Virus record (IMG/VR): IMGVR_UViG_3300036453_000006
Span: 1,022 to 65,021 of that record
DNA length: 64,000 nucleotides
Source of the DNA: a virus
Lineage: Duplodnaviria; Caudoviricetes
Reading direction: 5' to 3' (one strand)
Part shown: piece after piece, positions 2,449 to 48,869 of the stretch
How the letters are laid out: the number at the start of each line of letters is the position of its first letter
Numbering within the stretch: the first letter of the stretch is position 1
Program-made: the position numbers and the translations under genes
Notes under the pieces: generated by a model
The model's database searches: none
What the model was told of the DNA's origin: nothing
What the model saw: only the letters and a program-made list of their open reading frames with translations

Positions 2449-2805
2449 TCAGATATCTTTTACCACGGGCTTTTTGGCAGCAGGCTTACGCTTGGGCTTC
2501 ATTGCTTCTTCATTGACGGCCTTGATGTTTTCAAGAAGCTGATTCTGATTTTTGATCTCAGCTTCAGCTTCATCAATGCTGGTTTGGATACCCGTAGCCA
2601 TGTTGTCCATGCCGTCAGTGATCTTTTTAGCAGCCATATTACTCAGAAGTGAGCCGATGACGAGAGTTCCAACTCGCATACCGAGCTTAGGAAGGAACGT
2701 GAGGTCCGCTGGAGTGTTCTTAACAATGACCGTGGTCAGCACAAGTCCGACACTTGCCGAAACAACGCCTTCGACGGCACTTTTGAAGTTTTCGTACATA
2801 CTCAT
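2449..2805 (-). CDS. membrane protein with coiled-coil tail
   Basis: 118 aa, two hydrophobic segments, AAAGGA RBS. Confidence 0.6.
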   Translation of the reverse strand: MSMYENFKSAVEGVVSASVGLVLTTVIVKNTPADLTFLPKLGMRVGTLVIGSLLSNMAAKKITDGMDNMATGIQTSIDEAEAEIKNQNQLLENIKAVNEEAMKPKRKPAAKKPVVKDI

Positions 2806-2850
2806 GTTTAGTCCTTTTCTGAGAATTGAGTGGTGCTTGAGTGGGGCTGT

Positions 2851-3411: not shown

Positions 3412-3422
3412 GTTTAAAATCC

Positions 3423-3623
3423 TTACTTGTCGAACTGCTGGTAGGTCGAGTTGGTCCAAATCCGGCCATTGGTGGCGAGGATATGCTTTGCGCGGTTTAC
3501 TGCTGAGTAGCCATAAACCATGGCAGTCTTACTTGCAAATGCGACGATTGCAATATGAGCAATAGTTACTACCGCAAATGACGTTGTGTTGGAGAGTTTT
3601 TCTCCGAAACCGATCTTGTTCAT
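3423..3623 (-). CDS. small membrane protein
   Basis: 66 aa, AAAGGAG RBS, one TM segment. Confidence 0.55.
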   Translation of the reverse strand: MNKIGFGEKLSNTTSFAVVTIAHIAIVAFASKTAMVYGYSAVNRAKHILATNGRIWTNSTYQQFDK

Positions 3624-3708
3624 GGGGTTCTCCTTTCAAGAGAATTAAAAAGGGAAGCACATGTAGTTATTAGTTACATGGGCTTCCCGTTGATGACTGT
3701 CCGCTTAC

Positions 3709-3948
3709 TTATTCGGCGGTGGTTGATTCCAGGGTCGAGTCCTTGGGAACTTCGACGACGATGTAGTCAACATCAGGGTTTTCATCAAAGTCACCTGAAT
3801 CGACCTTCTTCAGCAGAACAGCGGCGGCGATGAGGCCGAGGGCAGTTCCGCCAATGACGGCGATTCGAGTAATGATGACCTTTTTGTTGGCCTTAATCTT
3901 CTCGATGAGGGTAGGGGCTTCGACGGTGGTGGGTGTGGTTTCATCCAT
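3709..3948 (-). CDS. cassette gene: small single-pass membrane protein
   Basis: 79 aa; preceded by promoter motif 3975-4005, followed by hairpin at about 3653-3690. Confidence 0.7.
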   Translation of the reverse strand: MDETTPTTVEAPTLIEKIKANKKVIITRIAVIGGTALGLIAAAVLLKKVDSGDFDENPDVDYIVVEVPKDSTLESTTAE

Positions 3949-10660: not shown

Positions 10661-10705
10661 AAGTCTCCTTTACGGGGGTCATTATATACCCTGTATAATC
10701 CGCGA

Positions 10706-10924
10706 CTAGATCTGATTGTAGATAATAAACATAACAGATCGTTCTACAAACAAAGTAATACTCCTTGATGGAAGCATGGATACGGGATATGCTTGGATCT
10801 TTACTTCGTTCGTGTCTTTAGACTTTTTGACTCGGGCAATGCGGTACAGTTGACCCGCAACCAGAATATAATCGTCTTGTAGAAGCTTTTTGGCTTTTAC
10901 AGCTTGCTCTTTCATTTTATCCAT
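10706..10924 (-). CDS. small beta-barrel-like protein
   Basis: 72 aa; A..L..DD.I..AG..Y pattern resembles 53949..54155. Confidence 0.55.
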   Translation of the reverse strand: MDKMKEQAVKAKKLLQDDYILVAGQLYRIARVKKSKDTNEVKIQAYPVSMLPSRSITLFVERSVMFIIYNQI

Positions 10925-11157
10925 CAGTTGTTACAACCTCAATCCAGGTTTCATGGGTCTCGTCCCTACAGCCGTTGGCATGAGCAATAGCACTCAATGC
11001 GTCATCGAGAAGCAGCAGTTTATGCGCAGCTTCAAAATCTTGACATTCGGTCTTACAAGCAATCCAAACTTGAAACTGCATAATATACCCCTTAGAAAGG
11101 CTATCAAAAAATGAAAAACCTTAAGCCCGTGTTAGGGGGCTGTTTGGCTTTTGAACT

Positions 11158-11421
11158 TTACTTCTCGTCGGGGGTTTCTTCGACGGGTGCTTCGGTCTCG
11201 GGGGTGAGAATCGTGAGTTTCTTGGCACGGCGGCGAGCACGCAGGGCGCTGATTCCACTCCAGATGCTTGCACCGACAACGTAGAGGAGGACGGGCGCGA
11301 GAGCGGCTCCGATTCCAATACCTGCCTGTACGAGTTGATCTTTGGTGGAGGGCGTCTGGTACTCGACCAGGATGTGGTCAGGGAACTCGACGGGGGTCTC
11401 GTTTGAGATGTTGGTGTCCAT
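11158..11421 (-). CDS. cassette gene: 87-aa membrane protein
   Basis: TM segment followed by basic RARRRAKK; own promoter and hairpin. Confidence 0.75.
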   Translation of the reverse strand: MDTNISNETPVEFPDHILVEYQTPSTKDQLVQAGIGIGAALAPVLLYVVGASIWSGISALRARRRAKKLTILTPETEAPVEETPDEK

Positions 11422-11654
11422 TTCTGGATTCCTTTCGTGAGGGGTTAGGGTTCACTATATACCTTGTAAATCTCGCGACTACTTGTTCGGATTGAACGAG
11501 CTGCGGGTCAAGGTCTCTTCCGACTCGTCAGGGTGATCCACCATATACGAGCTAACTAATCTAGCGATCACTTTATTCAAGTTATCGTACAATTCAATAC
11601 TCTTCGACGAGGACGTGAACTCGATCTTGATCATTTTATTTTCCTTAGAAAAGA

Positions 11655-11837
11655 TTAAATATAATCGGTCGTGGTCTTAAGTGTTCCGCTTGCAGGACTA
11701 AAGGTTCCAGTCACAGTTACGTCTGCGGTAACTTCGTGATCGAAACGGTGATCTTTCAAAGCATCCTGAATAGCGGTCCATACGAATTCAAACATTTCGT
11801 TATTCGTAGAATTTGAGACGAGTTCGATCTTAAACAT
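11655..11837 (-). CDS. hypothetical protein (60 aa)
   Basis: AAGGAG RBS; lies downstream of hairpin 11869-11885 and has no own class I promoter. Confidence 0.6.
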   Translation of the reverse strand: MFKIELVSNSTNNEMFEFVWTAIQDALKDHRFDHEVTADVTVTGTFSPASGTLKTTTDYI

Positions 11838-11896
11838 AATTGCTCCTTAGAAAAAAACAAAAACCTTAAGCCCGTGTAAGGGGCTGTTGGTTGGGT

Positions 11897-12016
11897 TTAG
11901 AGGGATTCGATGCTTTTGTACTGCTCTTTGTTGTACTGCACAGCGAAGACACTGACGATCACGATGGTGATGACAGATGCTGCGGTGGCAATGATAACTT
12001 TGAGGTTCTTGGACAT
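11897..12016 (-). CDS. cassette gene: 39-aa membrane peptide
   Basis: MSKNLKVIIATAASVITIVIVSVFAVQYNKEQYKSIESL; start reset to ATG 12016 after AAAGGA. Confidence 0.7.
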   Translation of the reverse strand: MSKNLKVIIATAASVITIVIVSVFAVQYNKEQYKSIESL

Positions 12017-12105
12017 ATTAATGTTCCTTTCTAAGGGGTCATTATATGCGTTGTAATTTTCGCGAAAGCGTAAGCCCGTGTTAGGGGCTGTGGCTTTGAC
12101 TGGCG

Positions 12106-12360
12106 TTAAACTAGAGGTCGTACTGATGTGTAGGCTGTGTGGCTTAAAGCACCATGCGGTAGTCTTACGGTAATTCGATAAGTACCATTCAGCGTTACTG
12201 GGCCATGTCGTTTTTCGTGTCTTGCGGCTGTACCTACGAGTAGGATACGGTGCCACAAATTATAACGTTTCGATGATTGCCAGGTAGCTGTAGTGAATGA
12301 TTTATCTTCGAATAGTTCGTAGTATAAAACATAGGCTTCAAGTATTTTTTGCTTGAACAT
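12106..12360 (-). CDS. cassette gene, paralog A (84 aa)
   Basis: Own promoter, RBS and hairpin; clearly homologous to 12448..12690. Confidence 0.8.
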   Translation of the reverse strand: MFKQKILEAYVLYYELFEDKSFTTATWQSSKRYNLWHRILLVGTAARHEKRHGPVTLNGTYRITVRLPHGALSHTAYTSVRPLV

Positions 12361-12447
12361 ATAGTTTCCTTTGTTTGTGAGGGGTCATTATATGCCATGT
12401 AGAAACTGCGAAAACCTAAAGCCCGGGTTAGGGGCTATGGCTTTGAT

Positions 12448-12690
12448 TTACAAACCTTTCTCAATGCGAACGTTGGTGTACTTAAAGAATTGCATTTTTA
12501 CGCGGACGGTATAGATAGAGTTCTTCTCAATGGGGCCTCGGCGCTTTTCATAGATCGAAGCTGATCCTCCGAGTATTAGTCGGTGGAGGAGTTTTTGATT
12601 TTTTGTTGAGCGCCATACGGCGATTGGGAACGACTCGTATTCAAATACGTCATGGTATAATACAAGAGCTTTTAGGTTCAGAGTTTTCAT
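12448..12690 (-). CDS. cassette gene, paralog B (80 aa)
   Basis: Shares VLY..FE..SF..A.W.S.K...L.HR..L.G.A...EKR.GP...N..Y with 12106..12360. Confidence 0.8.
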   Translation of the reverse strand: MKTLNLKALVLYHDVFEYESFPIAVWRSTKNQKLLHRLILGGSASIYEKRRGPIEKNSIYTVRVKMQFFKYTNVRIEKGL

Positions 12691-12776
12691 AATGATCCTT
12701 TGTTTGTGAGGGGTCATTATAAGCCCTGTAGAAACTGCGAAAACCTAAAGCCCGTGTTAGGGGCTGTTGGCTTGAC

Positions 12777-13043
12777 TTACTTATCTTTTGATAGGGAGTG
12801 TAGGTAAAATTCCATATCTCGGACGGACATGCTTACTGCTTGATCGATGGTAGTTCGCTGAAGCTGCTCGATGTTCAGCATTGCGGTCTCGAATTCCTTA
12901 CGCATAGCGGTGAGAGCTACCTGCTGCTTTTTGAGCTTGAGGTATTTCTTTGCAACGGTTCGGAGGAGTGCAACGCTGATCGAGAAGCCAACAAAGGCGC
13001 CAATGATCAGAACAATAAGAACGATGGTCAGAATGGTATTCAT
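12777..13043 (-). CDS. cassette gene: membrane protein with coiled coil (88 aa)
   Basis: N-terminal TM segment, AAAGGA RBS. Confidence 0.75.
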   Translation of the reverse strand: MNTILTIVLIVLIIGAFVGFSISVALLRTVAKKYLKLKKQQVALTAMRKEFETAMLNIEQLQRTTIDQAVSMSVRDMEFYLHSLSKDK

Positions 13044-13103
13044 GATAATCCTTTTTGTAGGTGAGGGGTCATTATATACCGTGTAGGAATCGCGATTGAA
13101 TAC

Positions 13104-13295
13104 CTACGGTTTGGGTTTTTTATTCTCTAGACGCTCGGCACGCATCTCGGCACCAATTCTTTTCCAGACTTTCCTGGAGACCACGATTGCATTCCAAATA
13201 CTTTTTCGGATCATGAATATGATGATCGCAAAGAATAATAGAATGACACTTCCGACGATTATAAGTGTTTGACCGATGAGTTGTAAAACGTCCAT
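13104..13295 (-). CDS. small membrane protein (63 aa)
   Basis: TM segment plus basic tail; no own class I promoter. Confidence 0.6.
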   Translation of the reverse strand: MDVLQLIGQTLIIVGSVILLFFAIIIFMIRKSIWNAIVVSRKVWKRIGAEMRAERLENKKPKP

Positions 13296-13365
13296 AATAT
13301 AAAACTCTCTTTAGTGGTTTACGAAATTGAAAAACCTAAAGCCCGTGTTAGGGGCTGTTGGCTTC

Positions 13366-13512
13366 TTAGGCCTGCTTGATGGCAGCCAGTTCGGCTTCAA
13401 GAACTTCGGTCTTCTTGTTCTGCTTTTGGACGATGAGCTGCTTCTGGGTGGAGGCGGCCTTTTCGACCTTGGCGAGAACAATCTGAGCGCGGAGCTTCTG
13501 ATTCTTGAACAT
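13366..13512 (-). CDS. cassette gene: 48-aa basic coiled-coil peptide
   Basis: Manual translation MFKNQKLRAQIVLAKVEKAASTQKQLIVQKQNKKTEVLEAELAAIKQA; AAAGGA RBS. Confidence 0.75.
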   Translation of the reverse strand: MFKNQKLRAQIVLAKVEKAASTQKQLIVQKQNKKTEVLEAELAAIKQA

Positions 13513-13601
13513 GGTGTTCCTTTCAATTAGGTGTTTAGGGGTCATTATATACCATGTAATTTTCGCGAAAACCTAAGCCCATGTTAGGGGCTGTTGGGTT
13601 C

Positions 13602-13757
13602 TTAATCTTTTTGAATTTGAACTTTTGGATTATAATGGGGGATACGGGTTTGAAGAATATGTTCTACGGCATTCTTAGCACTTTCCGGTGTGTGGAATAT
13701 GCCTGGGGTGTAGTCCAGTTCAACTTCAACAATCAGTATTACCGTTTTGTGGTCCAT
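13602..13757 (-). CDS. cassette gene (51 aa)
   Basis: Manual translation MDHKTVILIVEVELDYTPG...KVQIQKD; AAAGGA RBS. Confidence 0.7.
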   Translation of the reverse strand: MDHKTVILIVEVELDYTPGIFHTPESAKNAVEHILQTRIPHYNPKVQIQKD

Positions 13758-13837
13758 GATGTTCCTTTCAAGGGGTCATTATATACCATGTAGAAAACGC
13801 GAAAAAGAAAGCCTGGTTAGGGCTTCCTTCTTTGAAC

Positions 13838-14017
13838 TTACTTGTCGAGAAGCTTTTTCTTGAGCTGCTTGGCGCGTCCGAGCATCGTTCGATCGACCTG
13901 TCGTGCAATCTTGCGCTTGGTGGATACGAATACGAGTTCGTATACGAGGCCAATGAGCGAGAGTGCACTGACAGCTGCGACGACGATGGTCCAGGTGGCG
14001 CCTAGTTTCTTAAACAT
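13838..14017 (-). CDS. cassette gene: 59-aa membrane protein
   Basis: MFKKLGATWTIVVAAVSALSLIGLVYELVFV plus basic tail; AAAGGAG RBS. Confidence 0.75.
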   Translation of the reverse strand: MFKKLGATWTIVVAAVSALSLIGLVYELVFVSTKRKIARQVDRTMLGRAKQLKKKLLDK

Positions 14018-14110
14018 AGTTTCTCCTTTGTAGTGGGTTCTATTATAGGCCTTGTAAAAACTGCGAAAAAAAGAAAGCCGGGTTAGGGCTCCCTTTTGAT
14101 CCGTTAAGGA

Positions 14111-14203
14111 TCACATTGGTCGATTAAATCTCGATCGGGCGAGGAGGAGTACGACTGCGAGGAACAGTACGAGTCCTCCAAAGAACGATATGAATGACAT
14201 CAT
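14111..14203 (-). CDS. cassette gene: 30-aa membrane peptide
   Basis: MMSFISFFGGLVLFLAVVLLLARSRFNRPM; AAAGGA RBS. Confidence 0.65.
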   Translation of the reverse strand: MMSFISFFGGLVLFLAVVLLLARSRFNRPM

Positions 14204-14287
14204 AGCGATTCCTTTCTGGGGGTCATTATATGCCATGTAGAACTCGCGAAACGAAAAACGTAAGCCCGTGTTAGGGGCTGTGGTTTT

Positions 14288-14560
14288 TTACTTGATACGG
14301 GTGAGGATGTCGTTGGCTTCGAGGTACTCATCAGTACATGGGATCGAACCACCATGATTCGCAATGTAGGCGTTCAACTTTGTTGCTGCGCGATCATATG
14401 CACGCATGTCGATTTCGTCGGCGTTGATTTGGGCATGGCCAGTTTCAACGTCGAGGTTATAGACACGGAGATTGTTGATTGCATAAGCTTCAATAGTTGA
14501 AAGCCTAACAGTGTGTTTGGGGTCCGATCCATACTGATAGGTATTCTTACGATTAAACAT
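14288..14560 (-). CDS. cassette gene (90 aa)
   Basis: Start reset to MFNRKN at 14560 after AAAGGA. Confidence 0.75.
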   Translation of the reverse strand: MFNRKNTYQYGSDPKHTVRLSTIEAYAINNLRVYNLDVETGHAQINADEIDMRAYDRAATKLNAYIANHGGSIPCTDEYLEANDILTRIK

Positions 14561-14638
14561 AATGTTCCTTTCAAGAGGGGTCATTATAAGCACTGTAGAA
14601 CTCGCGAAAAGAAAAAGGCCTTGTTAGGGCCTCATTCT

Positions 14639-14827
14639 TTAGTCTTCAGGTAGGTAGTATTCGTCATACAGATCTTTTTCGACGAGGAATCCGTTCAGTG
14701 ACTTGATGCCTTGTCTCTGGAGCACTACGCTGGCAATACTGGTTAGAGTAACGACAATTGTAGTGATCAGGATTTGGCGTTCGTGGTCAACGATGAACTT
14801 CTTCGTTCGAGCGGTAATTTTCTTCAT
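14639..14827 (-). CDS. cassette gene: 62-aa membrane protein
   Basis: MKKITART... with central TM segment. Confidence 0.7.
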   Translation of the reverse strand: MKKITARTKKFIVDHERQILITTIVVTLTSIASVVLQRQGIKSLNGFLVEKDLYDEYYLPED

Positions 14828-14922
14828 TAGATAATGCCTTTCGTGAGGGGTCATTATAAGGCATGTAGAAACCGCGAAAAACTATAACCTTTGTGATATT
14901 ATCGTGAGGTTACAGATTTGGG

Positions 14923-15159
14923 TTAGATCCGATCGGCGATGACGATATCTGTGGATATGGCTCTTACGTATTTGTAGTGCTTTTCAACGACACTAAGCGG
15001 GACGAAGGACAGCAGGGAGACTGCATCTTCATCGAGATCGACTATGGTGAATCTGTTATTTAACAAAAACTTCCGTAGGGATTCGACGAAGCGGCATCCT
15101 TGCTCTTCTTCAGCCACAATGAGTTGTGTTTCGGTGAGTTGGCTAATAGCGTATGGCAT
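14923..15159 (-). CDS. cassette gene (78 aa)
   Basis: Own promoter 15178-15209 and AAAGGA RBS. Confidence 0.7.
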   Translation of the reverse strand: MPYAISQLTETQLIVAEEEQGCRFVESLRKFLLNNRFTIVDLDEDAVSLLSFVPLSVVEKHYKYVRAISTDIVIADRI

Positions 15160-15245
15160 TAGATTTCCTTTCGTGTAGGGGTCTATTATATGCCATGTAG
15201 AAACCGCGAAAACATAAACCCGTGTTAGGGGTTGTTTGTTTTTGA

Positions 15246-15461
15246 TTACTTCTTTCGGTTCCAGAACTTACGGTTAAGTAGTTCAGTACGCTGGTGTCGA
15301 GCATGTGATGCAGCTCCGGCAACGAAGTTGTAGTTCTTCTGTAAGAGTTCGAAGGTCTCGAATGAGACTTCGTCCTTTAAACAAGACTGCAACAGTTCGC
15401 GGGCGAGGTTGATGGCATTGTGCTCTTGAACGGTGTACGGAGCAATTTTGTGCTTGAACAT
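15246..15461 (-). CDS. cassette gene (71 aa)
   Basis: Own promoter 15476-15506, RBS, hairpin 15217-15233. Confidence 0.75.
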   Translation of the reverse strand: MFKHKIAPYTVQEHNAINLARELLQSCLKDEVSFETFELLQKNYNFVAGAASHARHQRTELLNRKFWNRKK

Positions 15462-15545
15462 GGGGTCCTTTCAGAGGGGTCATTATATACCATGTAAAAG
15501 CTGCGAAAACATAAACCCGTGTTAGGGGTTGTTTGTTTTTATAGG

Positions 15546-15725
15546 TTAGTCGATAGTGGTATTCTGTTTAAACCAGGCCTCAAGTTCTTCACGGATAGGT
15601 CGCTCTACTACTTCAAGTTGTTCGAGGGCGTCTGGAGCAGATGCTTTTTGGTCATCAGCCCAGAAGTCATTTATTATCTTGTCATAGTCAGCGCGAATTT
15701 CGCTCATGGTACGTGGGGTGGTCAT
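15546..15725 (-). CDS. cassette gene: 59-aa acidic protein
   Basis: Manual translation MTTPRTMSEIRADYDKIINDFWADD...WFKQNTTID; AAAGGA RBS. Confidence 0.7.
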   Translation of the reverse strand: MTTPRTMSEIRADYDKIINDFWADDQKASAPDALEQLEVVERPIREELEAWFKQNTTID

Positions 15726-15887
15726 TATAGATTCCTTTCTAAGGGGTCATTATATACCCTGTAAAACTAGCGACCTTTTGACCTAAAACTCCACCCGGGA
15801 AAATTTTAAGAATCGTTGTAGGACTTGCGAAAACATAGAAGCCGTGCTACTTTTTGGGTATTAGTAACACGGCTTCGCGGTTTTGGC

Positions 15888-16199
15888 CTATTTGATGATA
15901 GGGCCTGATTTGAGATTAGGTTTGATCACAAATCCGATTGCCTTGGAGGTTATGACGTTGAACTTCTCGAATCCCAGGATCATTCCCAGTCCGAAGACAT
16001 GCGCGCCGGCGTTAAGCAGTGCGTCACCCGTGAACTTACTTTTCTTCCGAGTGGAAGACCAGAGTTTGTAGAGGATATCGTACTGCTTGACGGCGGCTTC
16101 GTATTCTTTGGACGTGGAGCTGAGGCCTGAGAGTTCGTCGAGAACTCGGTCAAGTTCCTCTTTGAGTGTATCGGTTATGAGCTGCTTTTTCTTAAACAA
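15888..16199 (-). CDS. coiled-coil protein with C-terminal membrane segment, downstream of holin
   Basis: 103 aa, TTG start after AAAGGA; own class I promoter 16218-16248. Confidence 0.7.
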   Translation of the reverse strand: MFKKKQLITDTLKEELDRVLDELSGLSSTSKEYEAAVKQYDILYKLWSSTRKKSKFTGDALLNAGAHVFGLGMILGFEKFNVITSKAIGFVIKPNLKSGPIIK

Positions 16200-16249
16200 G
16201 CGCGTTTCCTTTCAAGAGGGGTCATTATAAGCGTTGTTTTTGTTGCGAA

Positions 16250-16537
16250 CTAATTCAAATGCTGGTTATTTACCTCTACCGCAGCGGCACTTTTATTGTA
16301 CGATACGTTACTAAGGCCCAGAATAGCCGCAAGGAACACGGTTACGAGCGAGATCGTACCTACAACCTGAGTGCCAAACGGGAAGATCCACAGTACTGAC
16401 AGGCCTGCATACAACGTGGCTGCAGCCGGCATGACGTATTGCACAAGGAACTTCAGCCGGTCATAGACCCCGGTCGTCAGGAACGACGTGGGGCTGTCTG
16501 CGTGGGCAGGGCCACTGTTATTCGTAGACATATTCAT
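16250..16537 (-). CDS. holin (Dp-1-type)
   Basis: YDRLKFLVQYVMPAAATLYAGLSVLW.FPFGTQVVGTI...FLAAILGLS, two TM segments, at the end of the tail module. Confidence 0.8.
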   Translation of the reverse strand: MNMSTNNSGPAHADSPTSFLTTGVYDRLKFLVQYVMPAAATLYAGLSVLWIFPFGTQVVGTISLVTVFLAAILGLSNVSYNKSAAAVEVNNQHLN

Positions 16538-16564: not shown

Positions 16565-17380
16565 CTAAGTTGGCTTCTTATAGACGCCAGATATCTTGAC
16601 ATATGGCAGTGCTATCTTATAAACACCTGAGAGTTTTACATACGGGACAGCATAAGAATAGGCACCATTGACTTTAAGTCTTGCTGGAGCCATGGTAGCA
16701 ACTACGAGTAGCCCCGAGGCATTCGAATATCCATTATTATCAGCAGAGCCATTGTGGGCATATACACGCCAAGAATAAGTCTTTCCTGGAGTCAGGCCAC
16801 TAATTACACGAGCTGTATTATTAGCCGTCGTATCGGTATATCCCCCAGTTCCGTCGGCCGTCTCGTACCTACGAAGTAGATAGTGGTCGATACCCGATCC
16901 AGCATTATCCGCCGAACCAGTCCAAGATAGCTTCATACTCTGCGGAAGGATCTCACTAGCTACAGGGGTTCCTGGGGACGAGGGCCTTTTCGGGATACGG
17001 GGTGGTGCGGGCAGAATTGCAGTATCGTTGAAGCTTACCCAACCCGACAACACTTGTCGAACAGTTCTGTCGCCAAGATATCCGTTAACATCATGTCCCA
17101 CGTCAAATGCCCAGGCGCCGTCATACCAACGAGTACCATTTGTCGGAACTCCTGACGGCAGTGTGCCGCTGTGACTGCCTGATCCTATACCGTCAACTTG
17201 ACCTGTCTGTGTGCCCTGGTTGTTATTAAACGAACCAGTGCTACCACGGTTAACAGCTTTAATATAAATATGAAGTGTCGAATAGTTTCCAGCCTGGTTT
17301 TGACTTACCCAGTCACACTCTGTATAGAAGTCCGTAGTTGGGGCTGAACCCGAACCTCTAGCGATTCTAGTAGTACCCAT
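16565..17380 (-). CDS. minor tail protein with fibronectin type III domain
   Basis: PSSPGTP...LSWT...I.HY.LRR...GLTPGKTYSWRVYAHN FN3 pattern; C-terminal PYVK.SGVYK repeat. Confidence 0.75.
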   Translation of the reverse strand: MGTTRIARGSGSAPTTDFYTECDWVSQNQAGNYSTLHIYIKAVNRGSTGSFNNNQGTQTGQVDGIGSGSHSGTLPSGVPTNGTRWYDGAWAFDVGHDVNGYLGDRTVRQVLSGWVSFNDTAILPAPPRIPKRPSSPGTPVASEILPQSMKLSWTGSADNAGSGIDHYLLRRYETADGTGGYTDTTANNTARVISGLTPGKTYSWRVYAHNGSADNNGYSNASGLLVVATMAPARLKVNGAYSYAVPYVKLSGVYKIALPYVKISGVYKKPT

Positions 17381-17388
17381 TATATGAC

Positions 17389-17634
17389 CTAGATAATCTT
17401 AAAGTAGATAGTTCCGTTGGGTTTCCCGTCAGAATTAACTGGGTCCGACGTACCGGATGTGATTCCGGATGAGTTCTGAAAACCCGTTATACCAACTGGA
17501 ATCAACTTCTTAACTAGGGCAATAATATCTCGAGTACGGTTAAGTTCACGAGCACCCCATCGAACACGTCCTTCTTCACCTGTATCCGGTACAAGTGGAT
17601 ATCCAGCTTGTGTTGCATCGTCTCCGATGGCCAT
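17389..17634 (-). CDS. minor tail protein
   Basis: 81 aa; GTSDP...G..IYFKI tail motif. Confidence 0.6.
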   Translation of the reverse strand: MAIGDDATQAGYPLVPDTGEEGRVRWGARELNRTRDIIALVKKLIPVGITGFQNSSGITSGTSDPVNSDGKPNGTIYFKII

Positions 17635-32348: not shown

Positions 32349-34340
32349 TTAGACGCGGGTGAAGCTCCAGTCAGTGTCAAGACCGTGCACGAAGGAGTAA
32401 CCCGCGGTTGCAACGGCTTCAACAATGATGGATGCGCCGCTGACAATGGCCGGCTGTGCGCCAGCTGCCAGAACCACGTTGGTCAGACCGTTGAGGTACG
32501 ATACGCCAGTCTGAGTCGGGATGGTCAGGACACCGGTGCTGTTAACGAACGTCGGTGCATTAACCGTGGTCAGGACGATACCCGGGTTGCTGCGGATCGT
32601 GATGGAGGACTTCGGCTTGGTCAGGGCACCCGAGATGCGAGTCTCGATCAGGTACTTGTTCTGGTTGTAGTCGATGTCGAAGTCGTCGAAGAAGTTGATT
32701 TCTCCGCCCTTGTCGGCACCCACGGTGTAGTCAATGAGGTTGACGATGACGGCAACGACGTCTGCTGCACGAGACATGGCCTCGACAACGACGATCTCGC
32801 TGACACCAAGGGCCGCGGCGAGTTCAGACTTCGTGGCGTAGTAACGACGACCGAGGGTGTCCTTGTCCAGGAGCAGGTCGGTGAGCTTCGACTGAGTCGT
32901 GTACATTGCCGGTGCGCCCGAGCCCTTGTAGTTGTCAAGGGAGCGGATGATTGCTTCGGTGGTCTCAGCCGGCGTGGGGGTGCCGTCGAGGTAGACCGTG
33001 GTGTTGTACATGTCAACGTCGTACGCGATCGGACGGAGGTGGTCCTCATCGATCTTGTCTTCGTCGTCAGACTCGCGACCGTCACCCACGAGGATTGCCG
33101 CAGCAACTTCCTCATCGAGCATGATACGCATTTCCATTTTGAGCCAGGTCACCACGTCGATGTCGGTGATGTCGATGATGTCATCCCGGTCCAGCTTCTG
33201 CTTCTTGTAGATGGTCTTGGGCTGAGTCACGCGCTTGAGCAGCTTGATGACTTCATCCTTCTTCAGGCTACCCTTGACGTAACCCTTTGCACGCGCCTCG
33301 TCAGCGGTGATGTCGGCCACGATGGACTTGACTCGCGAGATGGGGCTCTTACGAACACCCCCGAGAACCTTGGTGACCCATTCCATACGACGGCTGATAA
33401 ACTCCGGGGTGTTGGAGAGGGTCTTTGCGTCGGGGAAGAGGAATTCGATGTCGTCGATACCATACTCGCCGGCGTGGGCGATGAACGAGTCGGACAGCTT
33501 GCCGTACTTGTTACCGTCGTTGACGATGGTGGTCATCTGAGAGTGAGAAAGCGAGGGACGCTTGTCCTTGACAGTCTCGTTCTCTTCGAAAGCGTTGCGG
33601 GTCATGTTCTGGAAACCTTCCTTGATGGATTTATCGACGTGCTGAATGACATCGTCGGTGATTGTGGTTGTGATGGTTGCAGAATCCAACGCACTTTGCT
33701 GGAGTTCTTCGCCCTCGGTTGCTTCTGGGACAGTCTCGAGAGCTTCAGCAATGATTGCCGAAACGACGGTTGACTGCTCTTCGGTCAAGGTATCCCAGAC
33801 TTCCTTAACCGTTTTGGGGGTATCTTCGGCGTGGATAACGGTATTCGTTGTCACGTCGTCTCCTTCTTTAGTGTCGGCGTGCTCAAAGCTGAGCCCGGTG
33901 TAGATAATAGCTTCATCTTCGATATCGGTGCCGTCGCTGTGTGCGAGGTTAACGCTATCGATGAACGCTCCAGGATTGGCACCAGCTAGGACGAGACTGA
34001 CTTCCTTGATGTCGCCGTGGAAGACCTGTTTACCCTTCTGCTGAAGATTATTGGCATAGATAGAGAGCGCGGTAATGTCTCCGTGTCGAACGGATTCCTT
34101 AGCGATCTTGGCAACATCGGTATCGTTAAAAAATCCATAGGTGTACACACCGTCGGGACGATTTTCGAGAAGCGCATGTCCGAGAATATTCACCGGTTCG
34201 TTGTGCAGATGCTGCCAAACGAGGGGAACCCTCATGGTATCGTTATGCTTGAATGCATCAGTCATGATCGTTCGACCATCTGAACACATGAGTCCATTCT
34301 TTGTGGCGTAGCCACTAAAGTCGGGAATTTTGTCTCCCAT
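32349..34340 (-). CDS. prohead protease - major capsid protein fusion
   Basis: N-terminal HK97-type protease (DFSGYAT, VPLVWQH.H, EVSLVLAGANPGAFI), acidic linker, HK97-fold capsid domain. Confidence 0.9.
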   Translation of the reverse strand: MGDKIPDFSGYATKNGLMCSDGRTIMTDAFKHNDTMRVPLVWQHLHNEPVNILGHALLENRPDGVYTYGFFNDTDVAKIAKESVRHGDITALSIYANNLQQKGKQVFHGDIKEVSLVLAGANPGAFIDSVNLAHSDGTDIEDEAIIYTGLSFEHADTKEGDDVTTNTVIHAEDTPKTVKEVWDTLTEEQSTVVSAIIAEALETVPEATEGEELQQSALDSATITTTITDDVIQHVDKSIKEGFQNMTRNAFEENETVKDKRPSLSHSQMTTIVNDGNKYGKLSDSFIAHAGEYGIDDIEFLFPDAKTLSNTPEFISRRMEWVTKVLGGVRKSPISRVKSIVADITADEARAKGYVKGSLKKDEVIKLLKRVTQPKTIYKKQKLDRDDIIDITDIDVVTWLKMEMRIMLDEEVAAAILVGDGRESDDEDKIDEDHLRPIAYDVDMYNTTVYLDGTPTPAETTEAIIRSLDNYKGSGAPAMYTTQSKLTDLLLDKDTLGRRYYATKSELAAALGVSEIVVVEAMSRAADVVAVIVNLIDYTVGADKGGEINFFDDFDIDYNQNKYLIETRISGALTKPKSSITIRSNPGIVLTTVNAPTFVNSTGVLTIPTQTGVSYLNGLTNVVLAAGAQPAIVSGASIIVEAVATAGYSFVHGLDTDWSFTRV

Positions 34341-34392: not shown

Positions 34393-34686
34393 TCAGATCT
34401 TCCGAGCTGGCTGTTTAAAGGCTTCAGTCATAAATCTAGCAAACCGGTCCAGTCGAATGGCTCGTTTTGGATCAGTCTGAGATTGGGTATCGACCTTAGA
34501 TTCAGGTTTGGGGGTATTGTTTGAGCTGCCGGTACTTCTTGAATTAGTCGAACGACGGGTCTTAGGATCTTCGACTCCGACTTTACGATCACCCAGGTGG
34601 TCAACCGGGGGTGGGATTGACCCGTTTCTTCGACGCATACCCTTAACCCCATAATGGGCCAAAAACTTATCAGTAGCGGTACTCAC
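34393..34686 (-). CDS. HYG-leader protein (FLAHYGVKGM)
   Basis: 97 aa, GTG start, between portal and capsid. Confidence 0.65.
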   Translation of the reverse strand: MSTATDKFLAHYGVKGMRRRNGSIPPPVDHLGDRKVGVEDPKTRRSTNSRSTGSSNNTPKPESKVDTQSQTDPKRAIRLDRFARFMTEAFKQPARKI

Positions 34687-37779: not shown

Positions 37780-38145
37780 CTACTTGATGTTTTTAATAAC
37801 TGCCGCGGCGATGGCCTTGTCTAGACCTTTGATCGCGTATTCGCTAGCATACTTACTAGCAACTTTCTTACCCGAGTCCGCTAGAACGCTACTAACAAAC
37901 TTCTGACCAGCTTTAGGTGCAGGCTTAGTCAATGCACTATAGTCGTTTTCGAGCCGCATTCTAGAAATTCGCGTTTGAAGCTGCGCGTTACTAAGATGCA
38001 CGGTATTGGATCGAGTACTTCGAACTTCACCTTGGCCGTCAGGTTCGGTAGTGACAAAGCTACGTCCGCCTCGGCTTTTGCGTTTGCCCCACTTCATTCC
38101 GGGGATGCCAAAGTGTTTAAAGAAGTCTTCTGTTTGGTCGGACAT
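37780..38145 (-). CDS. HYG-leader protein (FFKHFGIPGMKWGKRK)
   Basis: 121 aa from ATG 38145; LSNAQLQ.RISR.RLE.DY motif. Confidence 0.75.
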   Translation of the reverse strand: MSDQTEDFFKHFGIPGMKWGKRKSRGGRSFVTTEPDGQGEVRSTRSNTVHLSNAQLQTRISRMRLENDYSALTKPAPKAGQKFVSSVLADSGKKVASKYASEYAIKGLDKAIAAAVIKNIK

Positions 38146-38179
38146 GTGTACTCCTCTCATGTTGTATTAATATGTAATA

Positions 38180-42795: not shown

Positions 42796-43004
42796 GATAA
42801 TGCCTTTCATTATTAGGATTAATTATAAAACGTTGGTGCTAAAAGTTTTTCGGCGGAACAACCCGTTAAGGTACTTCGGATTTTTGAAAAGTATAAGGGG
42901 TGTTGCTGCCTGAAACTCAGGACTTGTTAGGTCTTACCTATGGCTTTGACCAGGGTTAATCTAGGAACACTACGGGTTTTTGTCCCCCCGGGGCTTTTTT
43001 AGGG

Positions 43005-43013
43005 AGGGCAGCG
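43005..43013 (-). other. candidate cos site / genome end (CGCTGCCCT)
   Basis: Intergenic, within G/C-run-rich DNA between the last replication-arm gene and the first virion gene; resembles 9-nt CGCCG-type overhangs recalled for related actinophages (unverified). Confidence 0.45.
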
Positions 43014-43059
43014 ATGCGGGAGGGGGGCCTATTTTGCGAGACCCCCCTCCCCCTACCGA

Positions 43060-43347
43060 CTAGCTGTCAGACTTCTCAGTTTCTTGAGATACTTTTCTGT
43101 ACAAACCATTGTCATTCATATCGAGGACGTCATTAATTCCTTGATTAATAGCAATGTCTTGGTCCGGTTCGGACATTTCATCTGAAGTATTTGTAATCCT
43201 AGCCAATAGAGCACTAGAATGGTAACCTTTAGACTCGTCGAACGCATACCATTCGTCCCACTCACTGAAAGGACTGAAAGGATTGTCACTAGTCGTGAGC
43301 ATGTACCTGGTAGGGATGGGTGATGGGGTCGGTGCTGCTTCAGCCAT
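43060..43347 (-). CDS. conserved hypothetical phage protein
   Basis: MLTT.DNPF.PF.EWDEW..FDE.KGY.S. Confidence 0.7.
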   Translation of the reverse strand: MAEAAPTPSPIPTRYMLTTSDNPFSPFSEWDEWYAFDESKGYHSSALLARITNTSDEMSEPDQDIAINQGINDVLDMNDNGLYRKVSQETEKSDS

Positions 43348-43355
43348 GAGTTCTC

Positions 43356-46136
43356 CTATCTACTGATTGCGTCATTGAGTGTACTGGTTGGTATGCCTAG
43401 GGCAGTAGCTACTTCAGCCTGTGTGCGGCCTGCATTAAGCATGGCCTTGGCACGGGCTACTTTAGCATCGGGCATTACTGGTCTGTCACGTGGTGTAGCA
43501 AGCTCCCGTACACGGTCTTGATCAGCGTTCTTTAGTATGTTGTTGAGGCGGTTGTTAGTAATGGCGCCTGCCTGGATGGCAGACCACTCATCATCAGTGA
43601 TGAACACTGCTTGCTTCTTAGCCCCTGTTCTAGCACGGGAGTTGGCTAGAGCTTGAGTTTTAACCTTCTTTAACTCGTCCTTGTCCATCTCAGGGTTGGC
43701 CTGACGCTTGGCTGTGACAGAGGCATTGCCTATTAATTGGGCCTGGCGTTCAAGTGGGGCGTTTCTCAGGGCCACGTTCAACTTAGCAGTGAGGGAGGAC
43801 ACTTCAGACTTGTATGTGACGGCAGCACCCTTATTGTATTTAATAGGGGGGGTCGAAATCATAGACTTCCTAGCAGTGTTAGCTAGGGCCTTCATCTGGT
43901 TGGAGTGTGTAGCATACACAGACTCCATTGGTGTGCCACCCTTAGATACTAGGCTAAAGGCGTCATCTGTAATCTCGCCTTTCTTAACACTAGTGGTTCT
44001 AATGTTAACCTTCTCTGTGACAAGACCGGTCTTTTTACTTACCTTAGTGGTCACATAGGTTGCACCCGTTTCAGTAAAGACCTTCTTACCAGTACGGGGG
44101 TCAATTTTAAATCCACTTTTACGTTCAGCAATACGGGCTTCAGATGACACTTGCGAAATCAAGGTTTTAGCGCCCTTTGTAGGACCGCCCTGATACTTGG
44201 TTTTGAGTGCGGCGATTCCATTGTCTTGAGCAGAACGCTTATAATCGAGATTGTGCTTTTCAGCATCAATAACAACCATTGAGTGCATAACCGCTCTTGC
44301 AATTTCGGAATCAGGGGCGCTCATAATGGTCATATCCGTAATGAGGTTTGAAATCTTCCCCATTTCGGTTTGTTTAGAAACCATTTTTGGCATTCCCGGA
44401 TAGCCCTTATATTTAGACTGGGGATCGAAATCCTTCAGATCTTCAAGAGGGGGCTTATTTCGAACTCGACTATGACCAGAAGCCACATTGGGAATGACCA
44501 ATACCGTGTCACCGTCAAAGTCCGCACCAGAAAGACGAGCTGCAACCGTAGCATTAATTCCAACAGCATCGACCGCATTTTGAAGAAGCCGTTTAGCGTC
44601 TTTATTTCGGTTATTAACTGTCAGTTCTGGGATCTCAAAAATTCCACCATGAGGGTGTCGAATCAGAACAACTCTTTCCCCGTTGTTATATTGGGGGGCA
44701 TAAATCTCGTTGTCTTTCATCGATGAAATCGGCAGAATTACGTGGTTTCGAGTCCGAGGAAGACCTGCAGCTTTTAGATTTACAGCTGAGGCATCCGCAC
44801 CATCAGAGAATTGCTCTAGGAGCTTTCGCTTGACGGCTGGATTGTTGAGCGCCATGATTTCTTCATACTCGGCCAATTTAGAGGCATACGCAAGACCCAA
44901 CTGTTGTTTAGCAAGAATTGGACTCTGCTTAGACAACATCTGAGACGAAAGCGTTCTAGACCAACCATACCAGGCACCCTCTTCACCAGGCGTTTTGTTT
45001 CCGTCTGGATCAGTAGTTCCGACAATGTTTAGTGGAGAAAGTTTCTTCTTACCTGTTGTCGGGTCGATGTAGGTTTTCTGCCGGATGATAGATCCGAATG
45101 GGAGATCAGGATCCACAGCTTTGGTTTCTTGACCGTTTTCTTTTACACGCTTCAGAGGTTTAAGGGCGTCTAGCTTATTGCCCGTGGCGCTCTTATTCGT
45201 GTTGAAGCGCATGTCAACACCGTCAGGAAGATCATCCGCATACATGGCCATACCCTTAAGATAATGGGTATTATTGACCTGGATTCGAACTTGAGCATAA
45301 CGCGAGTCACCCAATGAGATATCGGCAACACCGCGTCGAAGTTCGATTACTCCGTCTTTTTGATCTCCGCCCTCTTCTTTATAGCGAACGGACAGACGTG
45401 AGTCTTTTACCGAGACTGGGGCTTTGATCGCACTAAACGATCGACCATTGTCCTCACTATAATGAGCTACCGTTCCGATTAGGCCTCCGCTTTGAGCAGC
45501 GATGACTTCTTTGTAGTCGGTATCGGGTGCGGACAGAACTTTAATCTTTGTGAACTTACCGGTACCAAGCTGCTGGGTTTTTACCGAGTTGACCTGATAG
45601 CCTTCCTCTTTGAGAATTTCGACTGCGGTATTCAACCGAGTTTGACTCACACCGAGGTAGTTTTCAGTACCCACTCCGATATCAAGGAATCTCTTACCGG
45701 CAACCTCAGTCCGAAGAACGTTGGATGTCGTGAGTAGGATGTCTTCTTTTTCTTGAGTTGCGGGAGCAAGAAGAGATCGAACGGTAGATTCGTTTTTACC
45801 CATCTCCAAACCAATTGCGACGTTGGACATACCCGTCAGTTTTAGCTTGACCGCGGTTGCAGAATCTTCACGACGAACAGTATCGCCAGCAATAGACATC
45901 TTTGCCCGGAATTGAGTACTCTTGAGACCCATACCTTCAGCAATTTGAGGATCGGTCAATCCATCCTTGCGAAGCTTATTGACATGGTCTGCAAACATAC
46001 GGTTGCGCTGTGAGGGATCGCCACCACTGCCCCAAGGATAACGCCCAGACTTCTGGAGTGTACCATAGTGCTGAATGGTACTGTCATCATCGAGGTATTG
46101 GATGTCTCGAGTTACGTCTACTACAGTGTCAAACAT
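43356..46136 (-). CDS. single-subunit two-barrel RNA polymerase-like protein (QDE-1/YonO type) with HTH domains and HYG leader
   Basis: QVRI...LKGM, RHPH, RLSGADFDGD, MGKISNLITD, HSMVVIDAEKH in the order expected for eukaryotic-RdRP-like polymerases; terminal HTH. Confidence 0.8.
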   Translation of the reverse strand: MFDTVVDVTRDIQYLDDDSTIQHYGTLQKSGRYPWGSGGDPSQRNRMFADHVNKLRKDGLTDPQIAEGMGLKSTQFRAKMSIAGDTVRREDSATAVKLKLTGMSNVAIGLEMGKNESTVRSLLAPATQEKEDILLTTSNVLRTEVAGKRFLDIGVGTENYLGVSQTRLNTAVEILKEEGYQVNSVKTQQLGTGKFTKIKVLSAPDTDYKEVIAAQSGGLIGTVAHYSEDNGRSFSAIKAPVSVKDSRLSVRYKEEGGDQKDGVIELRRGVADISLGDSRYAQVRIQVNNTHYLKGMAMYADDLPDGVDMRFNTNKSATGNKLDALKPLKRVKENGQETKAVDPDLPFGSIIRQKTYIDPTTGKKKLSPLNIVGTTDPDGNKTPGEEGAWYGWSRTLSSQMLSKQSPILAKQQLGLAYASKLAEYEEIMALNNPAVKRKLLEQFSDGADASAVNLKAAGLPRTRNHVILPISSMKDNEIYAPQYNNGERVVLIRHPHGGIFEIPELTVNNRNKDAKRLLQNAVDAVGINATVAARLSGADFDGDTVLVIPNVASGHSRVRNKPPLEDLKDFDPQSKYKGYPGMPKMVSKQTEMGKISNLITDMTIMSAPDSEIARAVMHSMVVIDAEKHNLDYKRSAQDNGIAALKTKYQGGPTKGAKTLISQVSSEARIAERKSGFKIDPRTGKKVFTETGATYVTTKVSKKTGLVTEKVNIRTTSVKKGEITDDAFSLVSKGGTPMESVYATHSNQMKALANTARKSMISTPPIKYNKGAAVTYKSEVSSLTAKLNVALRNAPLERQAQLIGNASVTAKRQANPEMDKDELKKVKTQALANSRARTGAKKQAVFITDDEWSAIQAGAITNNRLNNILKNADQDRVRELATPRDRPVMPDAKVARAKAMLNAGRTQAEVATALGIPTSTLNDAISR

Positions 46137-46693
46137 TAGACGTTCTCCAGGCTCCTAGTCGTGATCCGCTTATCGAATCGAATAATCTTGTCCATAATGT
46201 GAGTGATTTCATCAGGATCCCCCTCGAGCACTTCAACTGCATCTGATTGGTAGATGCGAAACTCCATGCCGATCTCTGCCGGCTTGATTCGATACTCTAG
46301 GCAGAACATAGCTGCATAGATTTCTAGCTGTCGGAAACTGGATTTAGAAGTACCAGTCTTCAGGTCGTGAATGCGAAGCAGTTCTTTGCGAAACGAAATT
46401 GAATCGGCTGTGCCGAAACAGTTATACGAGTACATCAATACTTGCTCAGCTGTCATGTGATACCCGAGAGCGTCATTGACATATGAGTTTATAGTTTGGG
46501 CGTTACGAGGTAGCTTCACTTTCATACGAATAAGCTCAGCGGCTAATGCATGGAGATCAGTTCCGCGTTGAGCCAACTGATGAGTAGTTAGATGCGTCTC
46601 AAACTTATCATCATCATAGTTGGTCCAGTGATACTTACTCGCGCTTAGTAGTGCGTGCTTTCCGACTAGATCGAAGTGCGAATTGAAGTTCAT
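46136..46693 (-). CDS. PD-(D/E)XK (Cas4-like) exonuclease
   Basis: RGT.LH..A, FGTADSI...IHDLKTG, QLEIYAA.F. Confidence 0.75.
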   Translation of the reverse strand: MNFNSHFDLVGKHALLSASKYHWTNYDDDKFETHLTTHQLAQRGTDLHALAAELIRMKVKLPRNAQTINSYVNDALGYHMTAEQVLMYSYNCFGTADSISFRKELLRIHDLKTGTSKSSFRQLEIYAAMFCLEYRIKPAEIGMEFRIYQSDAVEVLEGDPDEITHIMDKIIRFDKRITTRSLENV

Positions 46694-46958
46694 CTAGAAT
46701 GACCTTTGCGTTTTCTGGAAAGATGGTCGCGGAGTACGCCATCGTGTTGAGCATGTCAAGGTAGTATTCTTGGTTTGGTCGGTAGGGCTCCGACGCTGAC
46801 CGCTTGACTTCTAGTGCTGCCCAGTTCTTTCGAAAAAGAATGAGGAGATCAGGAAAGCCTTGGATGTAGTTTGGATCATTCTTTAAAACAACACATCCAG
46901 GAAAGACGGCTTTGATCTCTTTAATGAGGTCTGCTTGGAATTCGCTCTCTAGTTTCAT
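46635..46958 (-). CDS. VRR-NUC domain nuclease
   Basis: ESEFQ..LIKEI...G.PDL......ALEVK...RPNQ..Y. Confidence 0.8.
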   Translation of the reverse strand: MKLESEFQADLIKEIKAVFPGCVVLKNDPNYIQGFPDLLILFRKNWAALEVKRSASEPYRPNQEYYLDMLNTMAYSATIFPENAKVILDELQFALRSSRKARTTKRE

Positions 46959-47031
46959 AATTGCTGTCTTTTAGCATAATCACAAAAAAAAGACAGGGTG
47001 TCCCTTCTATTATAAGGCATGTATTAAATGC

Positions 47032-47432
47032 GTGGACAATTACCCTACTCGGTACAAGCTTCGGTCACTCACCCACTTTTGAAGTAAAAATCCCATTACT
47101 TATCTATAAGGTGTTTTTTACCTCAGTGTAGCAAATAGTGATTCAAAAGTGGGTGAGTGACCGAGAGGGGGGTTAAACTGACAAAGTGTGTGGACAATGG
47201 GGTTAGAATGGGCTATTTGTGGACACAAAACGGCCTTTTTAGCCCTTTTTAGCCCCTTTTTCAGAATTCGAATTTTCAAATCTCTGGCCAAATCTGAAAT
47301 CACTTTTGACCGAAAACCCACTTTAGTGACCGAAACGCTCCGACTAGGGTATTTATTGTCCACTTAATTTGGAAATAAGTGGGCGAGTGACCCGTTTATG
47401 GCCAGAGATTTTTCAGTTTTGGCCAGAGATTT
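47032..47432. repeat. candidate replication origin with inverted and direct repeats
   Basis: 23-bp perfect inverted repeat 47061-47083 / 47142-47164; GGCCAGAGATTT x3; GTGGACA x4; AT-rich runs; no credible ORF. Confidence 0.6.
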
Positions 47433-48320: not shown

Positions 48321-48869
48321 TTAACTATCCAATCCATAATCCACTTCGGTGATCGGGTAGGTACGACCGTCTAAGATGTAGTCCATACCTCTGAGCCACT
48401 CATCACGGTCAGCAGTACCTTTGATGTAAGCTAGTGTTACGTGCGGCTTGTAGGCACCATAGGTGTCAGTGTGAGGTAGCTGAGTTAGACGCTCACGGCC
48501 TTCGAGAAGATTAGTAGTCTCTAGTACTGTGGCTATGATGACATTGTAATCTTCTCCTTCAACCGATGATGGAAAGTATGTGATACGCTCGAACTCAATT
48601 GGTTCAGGCGTCCATCCATCAAGGGCCTCAGCTACCTCTCGTACGTAACCGGTGCTTGGGTGAATACCAAACAACAAAGTAACGTGAGCATTGCGTTGTC
48701 CAACAAGACCCTGAGCATACTGCAGCTGCGGGTGTTTACCATAGAACAAATCGTGAATGGGTAGATTGCCACCCCACCCTCGTTCCATGTAGGTAAACGG
48801 TTGAATGTTGAGCATCACACACTCAAGGTCTTGTACTGATACCCCTTCGGGCAGTGGGAGGTTTCCCAT
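48321..48869 (-). CDS. 2H phosphoesterase (Acb1 / T4 57B-like)
   Basis: Two HxT motifs: NAHVTLLFG and YKPHVTLAY. Confidence 0.8.
   Translation of the reverse strand: MGNLPLPEGVSVQDLECVMLNIQPFTYMERGWGGNLPIHDLFYGKHPQLQYAQGLVGQRNAHVTLLFGIHPSTGYVREVAEALDGWTPEPIEFERITYFPSSVEGEDYNVIIATVLETTNLLEGRERLTQLPHTDTYGAYKPHVTLAYIKGTADRDEWLRGMDYILDGRTYPITEVDYGLDS

Follow-up and report, generated by a model that had tools for sequence, protein, structure and literature searches.

The polymerase gene and its predicted fold

The DNA analysed here, hereafter the window, is a stretch of 64,000 nucleotides (nt) from a phage genome, corresponding to bases 1022–65021 of a 65,021-base-pair IMG/VR virus record (IMGVR_UViG_3300036453_000006) that CheckV rates as complete. 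One gene on its minus strand encodes a 926-residue protein that is very probably a single-chain RNA polymerase with two double-psi β-barrels; as judged by family profile and structure prediction, the protein belongs to the QDE-1/RDR/YonO-like branch of such enzymes and to the phage family PHROG 4291. An earlier note, made from the sequence alone, had proposed a polymerase of this kind and had quoted a series of motifs from its translation. The open reading frame (ORF) spans exactly 43356–46136, and all the quoted strings are present in the order given there: TIQHYG (residues 20–25), GRYPWG (31–36), YAQVRI (280–285), HYLKGM (291–296), RHPH (493–496), ARLSGADFDGD (533–543), MGKISNLITD (592–601) and HSMVVIDAEKH (618–628). 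The coordinates of this gene and of the other features discussed below are collected in Table 1.

Fold, catalytic loop, family profile and synteny agree on the polymerase assignment. First, the protein matches the profile phrog_4291, named “RNA-dependent RNA polymerase”, with an E-value of 0 and 1205 bits (residues 17–925 against profile positions 8–906 of 909), and the features that mark PHROG 4291 are all found: a full-length profile match, a helix-turn-helix (HTH) at both ends, and a right-end position after VRR-Nuc and Cas4-like genes. The family is large, with 3,323 clusters at 50% identity matching at E ≤ 1e-3; the nearest protein from a cultured phage is 56.5% identical to ours, and the nearest metagenomic protein 88%. 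Among the 250 phage records that hold a member, most call it “HTH DNA-binding protein”, as the earlier note had predicted, or hypothetical, and a few call it “RNA-dependent RNA polymerase”. A phage 1706 protein (orf75) was listed among five YonO-like families by Ruprich-Robert and Thuriaux (2010), and Koert et al. (2021) described as a putative RNA polymerase the HTH domain-containing protein that occurs in an actinophage supercluster and in phages of Lactococcus and Faecalibacterium, on the basis of an HHpred match to RNA-dependent RNA polymerase (RdRP), a DxDGD loop and HTHs at both ends. The window gene is thus a new sequence within an already catalogued, computationally predicted family, and reading it as such corrects a widespread annotation that hides a putative polymerase.

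Second, the residues expected of such an enzyme are conserved. In an alignment of 54 homologues (57–88% identity), Q282, R284, K294, G295, R493, P495, D539–D543, G593, N597, D624 and K627 are invariant, as are H23, G25, G31, R32, P34 and G36 of the N-terminal motif, which argues that the motif set is not a product of chance. The same conservation bears on the alternative that the protein is a catalytically dead relic acting only as an HTH transcription regulator. Pfam thresholds are passed by HTH families only, and most annotators speak of a DNA-binding protein; but the aspartates that bind metal, like the remaining barrel motifs, are invariant in the homologues, and a core of ~530 residues is conserved across thousands of clusters, so that we consider a dead relic extremely improbable.

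Third, an AlphaFold2 model built from the alignment (mean predicted local distance difference test score, pLDDT, 79.5) confines disorder to residues 1–31, and a Foldseek search of the PDB with this model returns QDE-1 first (E 2e-9), followed by the non-virion polymerases of P23-45 type (P32 gp64/P74 gp62), RDR2 and then β′/Rpb1 chains. Realignment with VIA to QDE-1 and RDR2 covers model residues 238–765 and gives Z-scores of 13.3–14.7 over 350–380 residues, at a root-mean-square deviation of ~4 Å; gp64-type chains reach a Z of 11.3, and the region of the DFDGD barrel (residues 454–655) aligns with the barrel region of Rpb1/β′ at a Z of ~11. The predicted model, as distinct from a solved structure, therefore places two barrel domains in one catalytic core. 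The comparison with QDE-1 that the earlier note had recommended as a check hence came out in favour of its polymerase reading, with the core aligned, QDE-1 as top match and both barrels present. The invariant Q.R...KG block (Q282, R284, K294, G295), a candidate counterpart of the conserved basic residues in the second barrel of QDE-1 and of the β subunit, falls inside the range aligned to QDE-1.

Other observations weigh against the assignment. Whole-chain TM-scores are low (~0.3); the Pfam RdRP family PF05183 scores 14.2 bits, below its cut-off of 23.8 for membership; and we found no biochemical test of any family member in the literature. The sub-threshold PF05183 match is local (profile positions 426–483) and lies on the catalytic-loop region. 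The same search also gives a match in Bacillus subtilis, which harbours the prophage that encodes YonO, and 7 of the 54 homologues match PF05183 at E ≤ 1e-3. Sequence searches of the PDB, with the protein and with its profile, returned nothing meaningful.

Table 1. Positions in the window of the putative polymerase gene, its parts and associated features
Feature	Position	Strand	Evidence or remarks
Putative two-barrel RNA polymerase gene (P0001), 926 amino acids, single-chain	43356–46136	−	ORF, PHROG, fold, conservation
DFDGD metal-binding loop (D539, D541, D543)	44508–44522	−	Conservation, local Pfam RdRP match
Predicted catalytic core, residues ~238–765, both barrels	43842–45425	−	Structural alignment to QDE-1 and RDR2
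N-terminal DNA-binding region, residues ~41–220: LuxR/sigma-region-4-like HTHs, then winged-helix-like domain	45477–46016	−	Pfam, PHROG, model
C-terminal HTH (HTH_23), residues 894–926	43359–43457	−	Pfam
Conserved HYG...GRYPWG motif, residues 20–36, predicted disordered (pLDDT ~32)	46029–46079	−	First half related to DUF7211
Upstream genes of the polymerase operon	46136–46958	−	VRR-Nuc-like endonuclease 46635–46958; Cas4-like exonuclease 46136–46693
95-residue acidic protein, phrog_4303, without Pfam match	43060–43347	−	Directly 3′ of the polymerase gene
G-rich hairpin and joined genome-end (cos-like) junction	42990–43059	−	Colinear with right end/left end of Count, Bilo and 1706
Promoter-like copy directly before the nuclease-polymerase operon	47003–47032	−	Motif search
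Main array of promoter-like motif, before small genes after the tail module	10680–16250	−	Repeat search
Further promoter-like copies	~4004, 5839, 47763, 53904, 54202	−	Coding strand; 22 in total with array and operon copy
126-residue head-module protein, N-terminal DUF7211	37780–38160	−	Between connector and terminase
97-residue head-module protein, N-terminal DUF7211	34393–34686	−	Between portal and protease-capsid fusion

Operon, DNA-binding flanks and a tripartite promoter-like motif

The Cas4-like exonuclease gene lies upstream, and its stop codon shares 1 nt with the start codon of the polymerase gene; the conserved gene for the 95-residue protein starts 8 bases past the end of the polymerase gene, from which we conclude that the latter belongs to an operon. 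The order VRR-Nuc, Cas4-like exonuclease, polymerase and small gene matches that of phages Count, Bilo, Kenosha and JEGGS, where the right genome end follows; the last two genes of Lactococcus phage 1706 are likewise the polymerase and a small gene, and in every relative examined a small gene at this position is the final one of the genome. The 95-residue product in the window may be a cofactor or partner of the polymerase. In Count, Bilo and even 1706, joining the right genome end to the left one gives a stretch with which the 250 bases past the small gene are colinear, and this indicates that the contig was assembled across cohesive ends; the physical right end of the genome lies at ~43005, some 350 nt beyond the polymerase stop codon. 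The genome-end sequence is itself conserved as far as Lactococcus phage 1706. All genes of the phage share one reading direction.

Both flanks of the predicted core carry DNA-binding modules. Pfam on the 926-residue protein passes HTH families only, with the C-terminal HTH_23 exactly at its cut-off, and the N-terminal match to Sigma70_r4_2 (residues 93–124) is sub-threshold in the window protein. Among the homologues, 52 of 54 have HTH_23 and 36 of 54 have Sigma70_r4_2, so that the HTH segments claimed for both termini hold, the N-terminal one more clearly in the homologues than in the window. A separate model of residues 37–240 (pLDDT 88) predicts LuxR/sigma-4-like helices followed by a winged-helix-like domain; VIA gives middling matches of this model to winged-helix and LuxR-type structures (Z 6–9), and Foldseek on the N-terminal domain alone returned no significant match. 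A 95-kb IMG/VR relative (L113/G019) has, in addition to a full-length polymerase gene, a separate 360-residue frame (16717–17517 of that contig) that matches only the N-terminal HTH region and covers positions 43–209 of the polymerase-family profile.

A repeat search brought out a 30-nt element composed of a CGCR-like box, a 5-nt spacer, TACA, a second 5-nt spacer and TATAAT, usually followed by GACCCC. There are 22 copies on the coding strand of the window and one on the other strand, against 0.11 in shuffled sequences. The copies stand 10–25 nt before ribosome-binding sites, and are found before the small genes past the tail module, in the replication region and at 47032; no copy occurs in the structural-gene arm of the window. 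Within the main array there is one small gene per copy, and most units end in a hairpin and T-run terminator with a conserved loop. Directly after the copy that precedes the polymerase operon, a short stem (GACA..TGTC) is followed by eight T (46975–47010, minus strand), which may be an attenuator or a chance occurrence.

Count, Bilo, Kenosha and JEGGS, which infect Microbacterium, Streptomyces, Gordonia and Arthrobacter, show the same architecture; all their copies are on the coding strand, and the reversed control has zero matches. Phage 1706 has a version with a different downstream box, which surfaced in a de novo repeat search; the strict actinophage pattern finds no copy there. Eight of 18 IMG/VR relatives also have the motif, always on the polymerase strand, and its architecture is kept in relatives whose hosts belong to five genera. 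A −35 hexamer at the distance typical of sigma-70 promoters is lacking, and a scan for sigma-70 promoters around the polymerase gene shows no enrichment (11 sites, 16.5 expected). Its tripartite build, the lack of a −35 box and its conservation across host phyla would fit an early-gene promoter unlike that of the host, but its −10 hexamer is canonical. Our literature search found no paper that prints it.

Conservation of the two upstream boxes in phages of two host phyla argues for a conserved phage-encoded reader, for which the HTH-flanked polymerase is the obvious candidate, and we consider it probable that the polymerase reads the motif. What speaks against this is the hexamer TATAAT, a perfect sigma-70 −10 element that the host polymerase could use. 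It also counts in favour of a different scheme, in which a real two-barrel polymerase would be made after infection, like YonO or T7 RNA polymerase, and would not be packaged: host polymerase would start at TATAAT or at other sites, with the phage enzyme taking charge of middle or late transcription afterwards, and some other purpose, such as partner binding or processing, would fall to the HYG motif. This scheme fits less well with the retention of both upstream boxes from phages of Actinobacteria to those of Lactococcus where the host-type −35 is missing, and no second class of conserved promoter was seen before the structural genes.

The nature of the template can be considered from the same data. 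The double-stranded DNA context of the phage and the characterised relatives suggest that the enzyme is DNA-dependent. One could instead suppose that it acts mainly on RNA, as an RNA-dependent polymerase whose products are double-stranded or antisense RNA, or as a replication primase: among solved structures the nearest folds are those of QDE-1 and RDR2, which use RNA templates (QDE-1 has both activities), PHROGs and some GenBank records name an “RNA-dependent RNA polymerase”, and the gene lies beside nuclease and replication genes. All members of the bacterial-virus branch with characterisation that we considered are, however, DNA-dependent, and the four DNA-binding modules together with the co-conserved promoter-like DNA motif fit action on DNA, so that a role on RNA or in priming appears highly improbable. 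The primase variant was set aside because the phage already encodes a 1,291-residue primase-polymerase and a helicase.

The HYG motif, DUF7211 and possible virion delivery

The earlier note had described the N-terminal HYG...GRYPWG segment as a virion-type leader common to the polymerase and two head-module proteins. Both of these proteins exist, and both match Pfam DUF7211 (PF23847) with 40.9 and 31.3 bits (cut-off 27). The polymerase motif is related to DUF7211 in its first half, at the level of profiles. An hhalign comparison aligns this first half with a probability of 81% (P 1.2e-5) over 15 columns; the score of 22.7 compares with a mean of 7.9 and a maximum of 16.7 for column shuffles, none of 400 of which reach it. 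What the two have in common is a first half of acidic residues, L, x, H-Y/F-G and a hydrophobic residue, and a loose G..WG. With a lineage-specific DUF7211 model, the best match in the ~900 residues of most homologues is the N-terminal HYG; the polymerase N-termini of relatives score 12.5–17.8 bits against DUF7211, those of Kenosha and Bilo are the only extra sub-threshold matches in whole-genome six-frame searches, and a weak N-terminal match on the polymerase is also found in 3 of 18 IMG/VR relatives.

The relation is nevertheless open to objection on several counts. Pfam finds no DUF7211 match on the isolated N-terminus of the window polymerase, where the cut-off is not reached, and the HYG motif of the window scores about −1 bit against the lineage-specific model. 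The second halves differ, with a longer S-G-R-Y-P-W-G-S-G in the polymerase and G-M-K-W-G in DUF7211. In some homologues, moreover, the motif is internal (residues 169–186), behind a fused 2H phosphoesterase. The motif also occurs twice within single proteins, namely Bilo gp6 (annotated as an acetyltransferase), a JEGGS protein and 1706 orf7. Since it is internal or tandem in some proteins, we interpret it as a linear motif for docking or processing, placed where modules meet, and not as a classical leader. The kinship with the head-module proteins claimed in the earlier note thus stands for the first half of the motif, while the polymerase copy remains below the DUF7211 threshold; of the virion-type leader, the association with DUF7211-bearing phages and the structural-protein label of the 1706 orthologue (see below) speak for it, and the failure against the Pfam model and the internal positions against it.

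Carriers of DUF7211 and of the polymerase go together closely. All five cultured relatives tested have DUF7211, and so do all 18 IMG/VR contigs of at least 41 kb that bear the polymerase. Conversely, of 21 contigs with DUF7211 and a length of at least 40 kb, 20 hold the polymerase, including 11 of the 11 that are at least 90% complete; the sample of DUF7211 contigs was drawn with a 6-row alignment of the actinophage form of the tag and is biased accordingly. A word-based search for longer DUF7211 carriers yielded only nine proteins, none of them a polymerase, and no paper mentioning DUF7211 was found in the literature search.

Further arrangements of the motif and its neighbours were noted in passing. 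Tandem DUF7211 proteins with one N-terminal and one internal motif are encoded in Bilo (2269–3171; L028) and 1706 (2501–3889; L031), which suggests modular cargo proteins in which each module starts with the motif. A 2H phosphoesterase-type domain is fused to the polymerase N-terminus directly before the HYG motif in some relatives (P0046, P0050, P0067, P0078, P0089, P0100, P0117), and the window has a free-standing 2H phosphoesterase at 48321–48869 on the minus strand (2′-5′ RNA ligase superfamily, weakly similar to Acb1, which counters CBASS). Such an enzyme could serve against host defence and be delivered together with the polymerase, to go by these sequence similarities. Among the head genes themselves, one gene (32349–34340, minus strand) encodes a protein of 663 residues that unites a prohead protease (Peptidase_S78) with the major capsid protein, as in Count, Bilo and 1706, and no separate scaffold gene was seen.

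For delivery in the virion, the best hint comes from phage 1706, whose GenBank record applies the term “structural protein” to orf75, the polymerase, and to orf7, which has two DUF7211 motifs. Scattered genes outside the morphogenesis block (orf62, orf71) are labelled likewise, and for this reason the label looks empirical; virion proteins of 1706 were reportedly identified by mass spectrometry. The label is, on the other hand, a GenBank annotation, and the literature search found no virion proteomics of relatives. Known two-barrel phage enzymes provide precedents of both kinds: gp66 of phi14:2, a crAss-like phage, and gp96 of Thermus phage P23-45 are virion polymerases that transcribe the first genes, while YonO and P23-45 gp64 are non-virion enzymes for later genes. 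N4 gp50 likewise belongs to the functional class of packaged phage RNA polymerases. That YonO, the best-studied relative from a bacterial phage, is a non-virion, late-gene enzyme is a point against delivery in the particle.

The scheme of an enzyme made only after infection has to be weighed again here. Besides the precedents of YonO and gp64 and the failure of the window motif against the DUF7211 model, it can call on the location of the polymerase operon, ~350 nt from the right end, which could be the first complete unit to enter the host if, as we infer, packaging runs left to right as in lambda. Neither the “structural protein” label of 1706 orf75, a gene far from the morphogenesis genes, nor the tight co-occurrence of DUF7211 with the polymerase is readily explained by it. 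The 1706 annotation, the co-occurrence of the tag and the early/middle distribution of the promoter-like motif favour the virion scheme; the weak similarity of the motifs and the −10 hexamer leave room for the non-virion scheme. Taking all this together, we regard an unpackaged enzyme with host-driven early transcription as rather unlikely, and the chances that the polymerase is packaged as about evenly balanced.

Proposed mechanism and comparison with known systems

Based on these observations, we propose the following mechanism. According to the model and the profiles, the polymerase would begin with a conserved HYG...PWG motif that is predicted to be disordered; HTH and winged-helix modules, the DFDGD catalytic core and a C-terminal HTH would follow. 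It would work as a DNA-dependent RNA polymerase whose HTH and winged-helix modules stand in for a sigma factor and bind CGCR-N5-TACA-N5-TATAAT before 22 early and middle units, including the polymerase's own operon. Copies of the enzyme would be loaded into the capsid by means of the HYG motif, as a diverged form of the DUF7211 tag of the head module, and would enter the next host with the DNA, making early transcription independent of the host enzyme. For this reading as a whole, that of a DNA-dependent, promoter-reading and virion-delivered two-barrel polymerase, we estimate a probability of roughly 60%.

A bolder and more tentative extension, which we hold to be possible and not probable, is that injection of a self-contained, sigma-independent two-barrel polymerase that reads the 30-nt promoter is common to a very large lineage of Gram-positive siphophages, by way of a DUF7211/HYG...PWG tag that loads the enzyme into the capsid and also other cargo (acetyltransferase-type proteins and Acb1-like 2H phosphoesterases). 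If true, this would amount to a general system for protein delivery and transcription take-over, hidden by annotation as “HTH protein”. Should the mechanism proposed above hold, thousands of siphophages from soil, gut and dairy sources, of which many are available in culture through SEA-PHAGES, would use a minimal one-chain relative of cellular RNA polymerase. The enzyme would then be (i) a compact model for sigma-free promoter finding by two-barrel polymerases and could be (ii) an orthogonal transcription tool for Actinobacteria and Firmicutes, and the DUF7211 tag could offer a way to load proteins of choice into phage heads.

The closest counterparts of the window polymerase are its orthologues 1706 orf75, Count gp132, Bilo gp57, Kenosha gp89 and JEGGS gp99, which are 38–57% identical over ~98% of the length. 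Like the window, they combine the HTH-core-HTH build and the genome position with the promoter-like motif and head-module DUF7211 proteins; the window differs in its unusually large set of 22 motif copies, and in that its contig spans the joined genome ends. Neurospora QDE-1 and plant RDR2 are the best structural matches of the core and have the DxDGD loop in common with it, but the identity is only 11–14%, no HTH flanks were noted in them, and they are cellular silencing enzymes that act on RNA or single-stranded DNA.

DUF7211 is a short conserved peptide that starts otherwise unrelated proteins encoded among the packaging genes, and it can be internal or tandem. As a peptide that would target proteins to the capsid, it has analogues in the capsid-targeting sequence of the T4 internal proteins, the propeptides of phiKZ and the cargo peptides of encapsulins.

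Among phage polymerases, YonO of the Bacillus prophage SPβ, which we liken to the window enzyme by description alone, is a single-chain two-barrel polymerase shown to be DNA-dependent; unlike the enzyme proposed here, it is absent from the virion and transcribes one late operon, from a promoter that is unknown. phi14:2 gp66 and P23-45 gp96 are two-barrel enzymes carried in the particle, and P23-45 gp64 is a non-virion partner. gp66 was absent among the fold matches listed for the window model. It belongs to a chain of ~2,200 residues, and gp96 forms a fusion with the tape measure protein, whereas the window enzyme is a free siphophage protein of 926 residues with HTHs at its termini.

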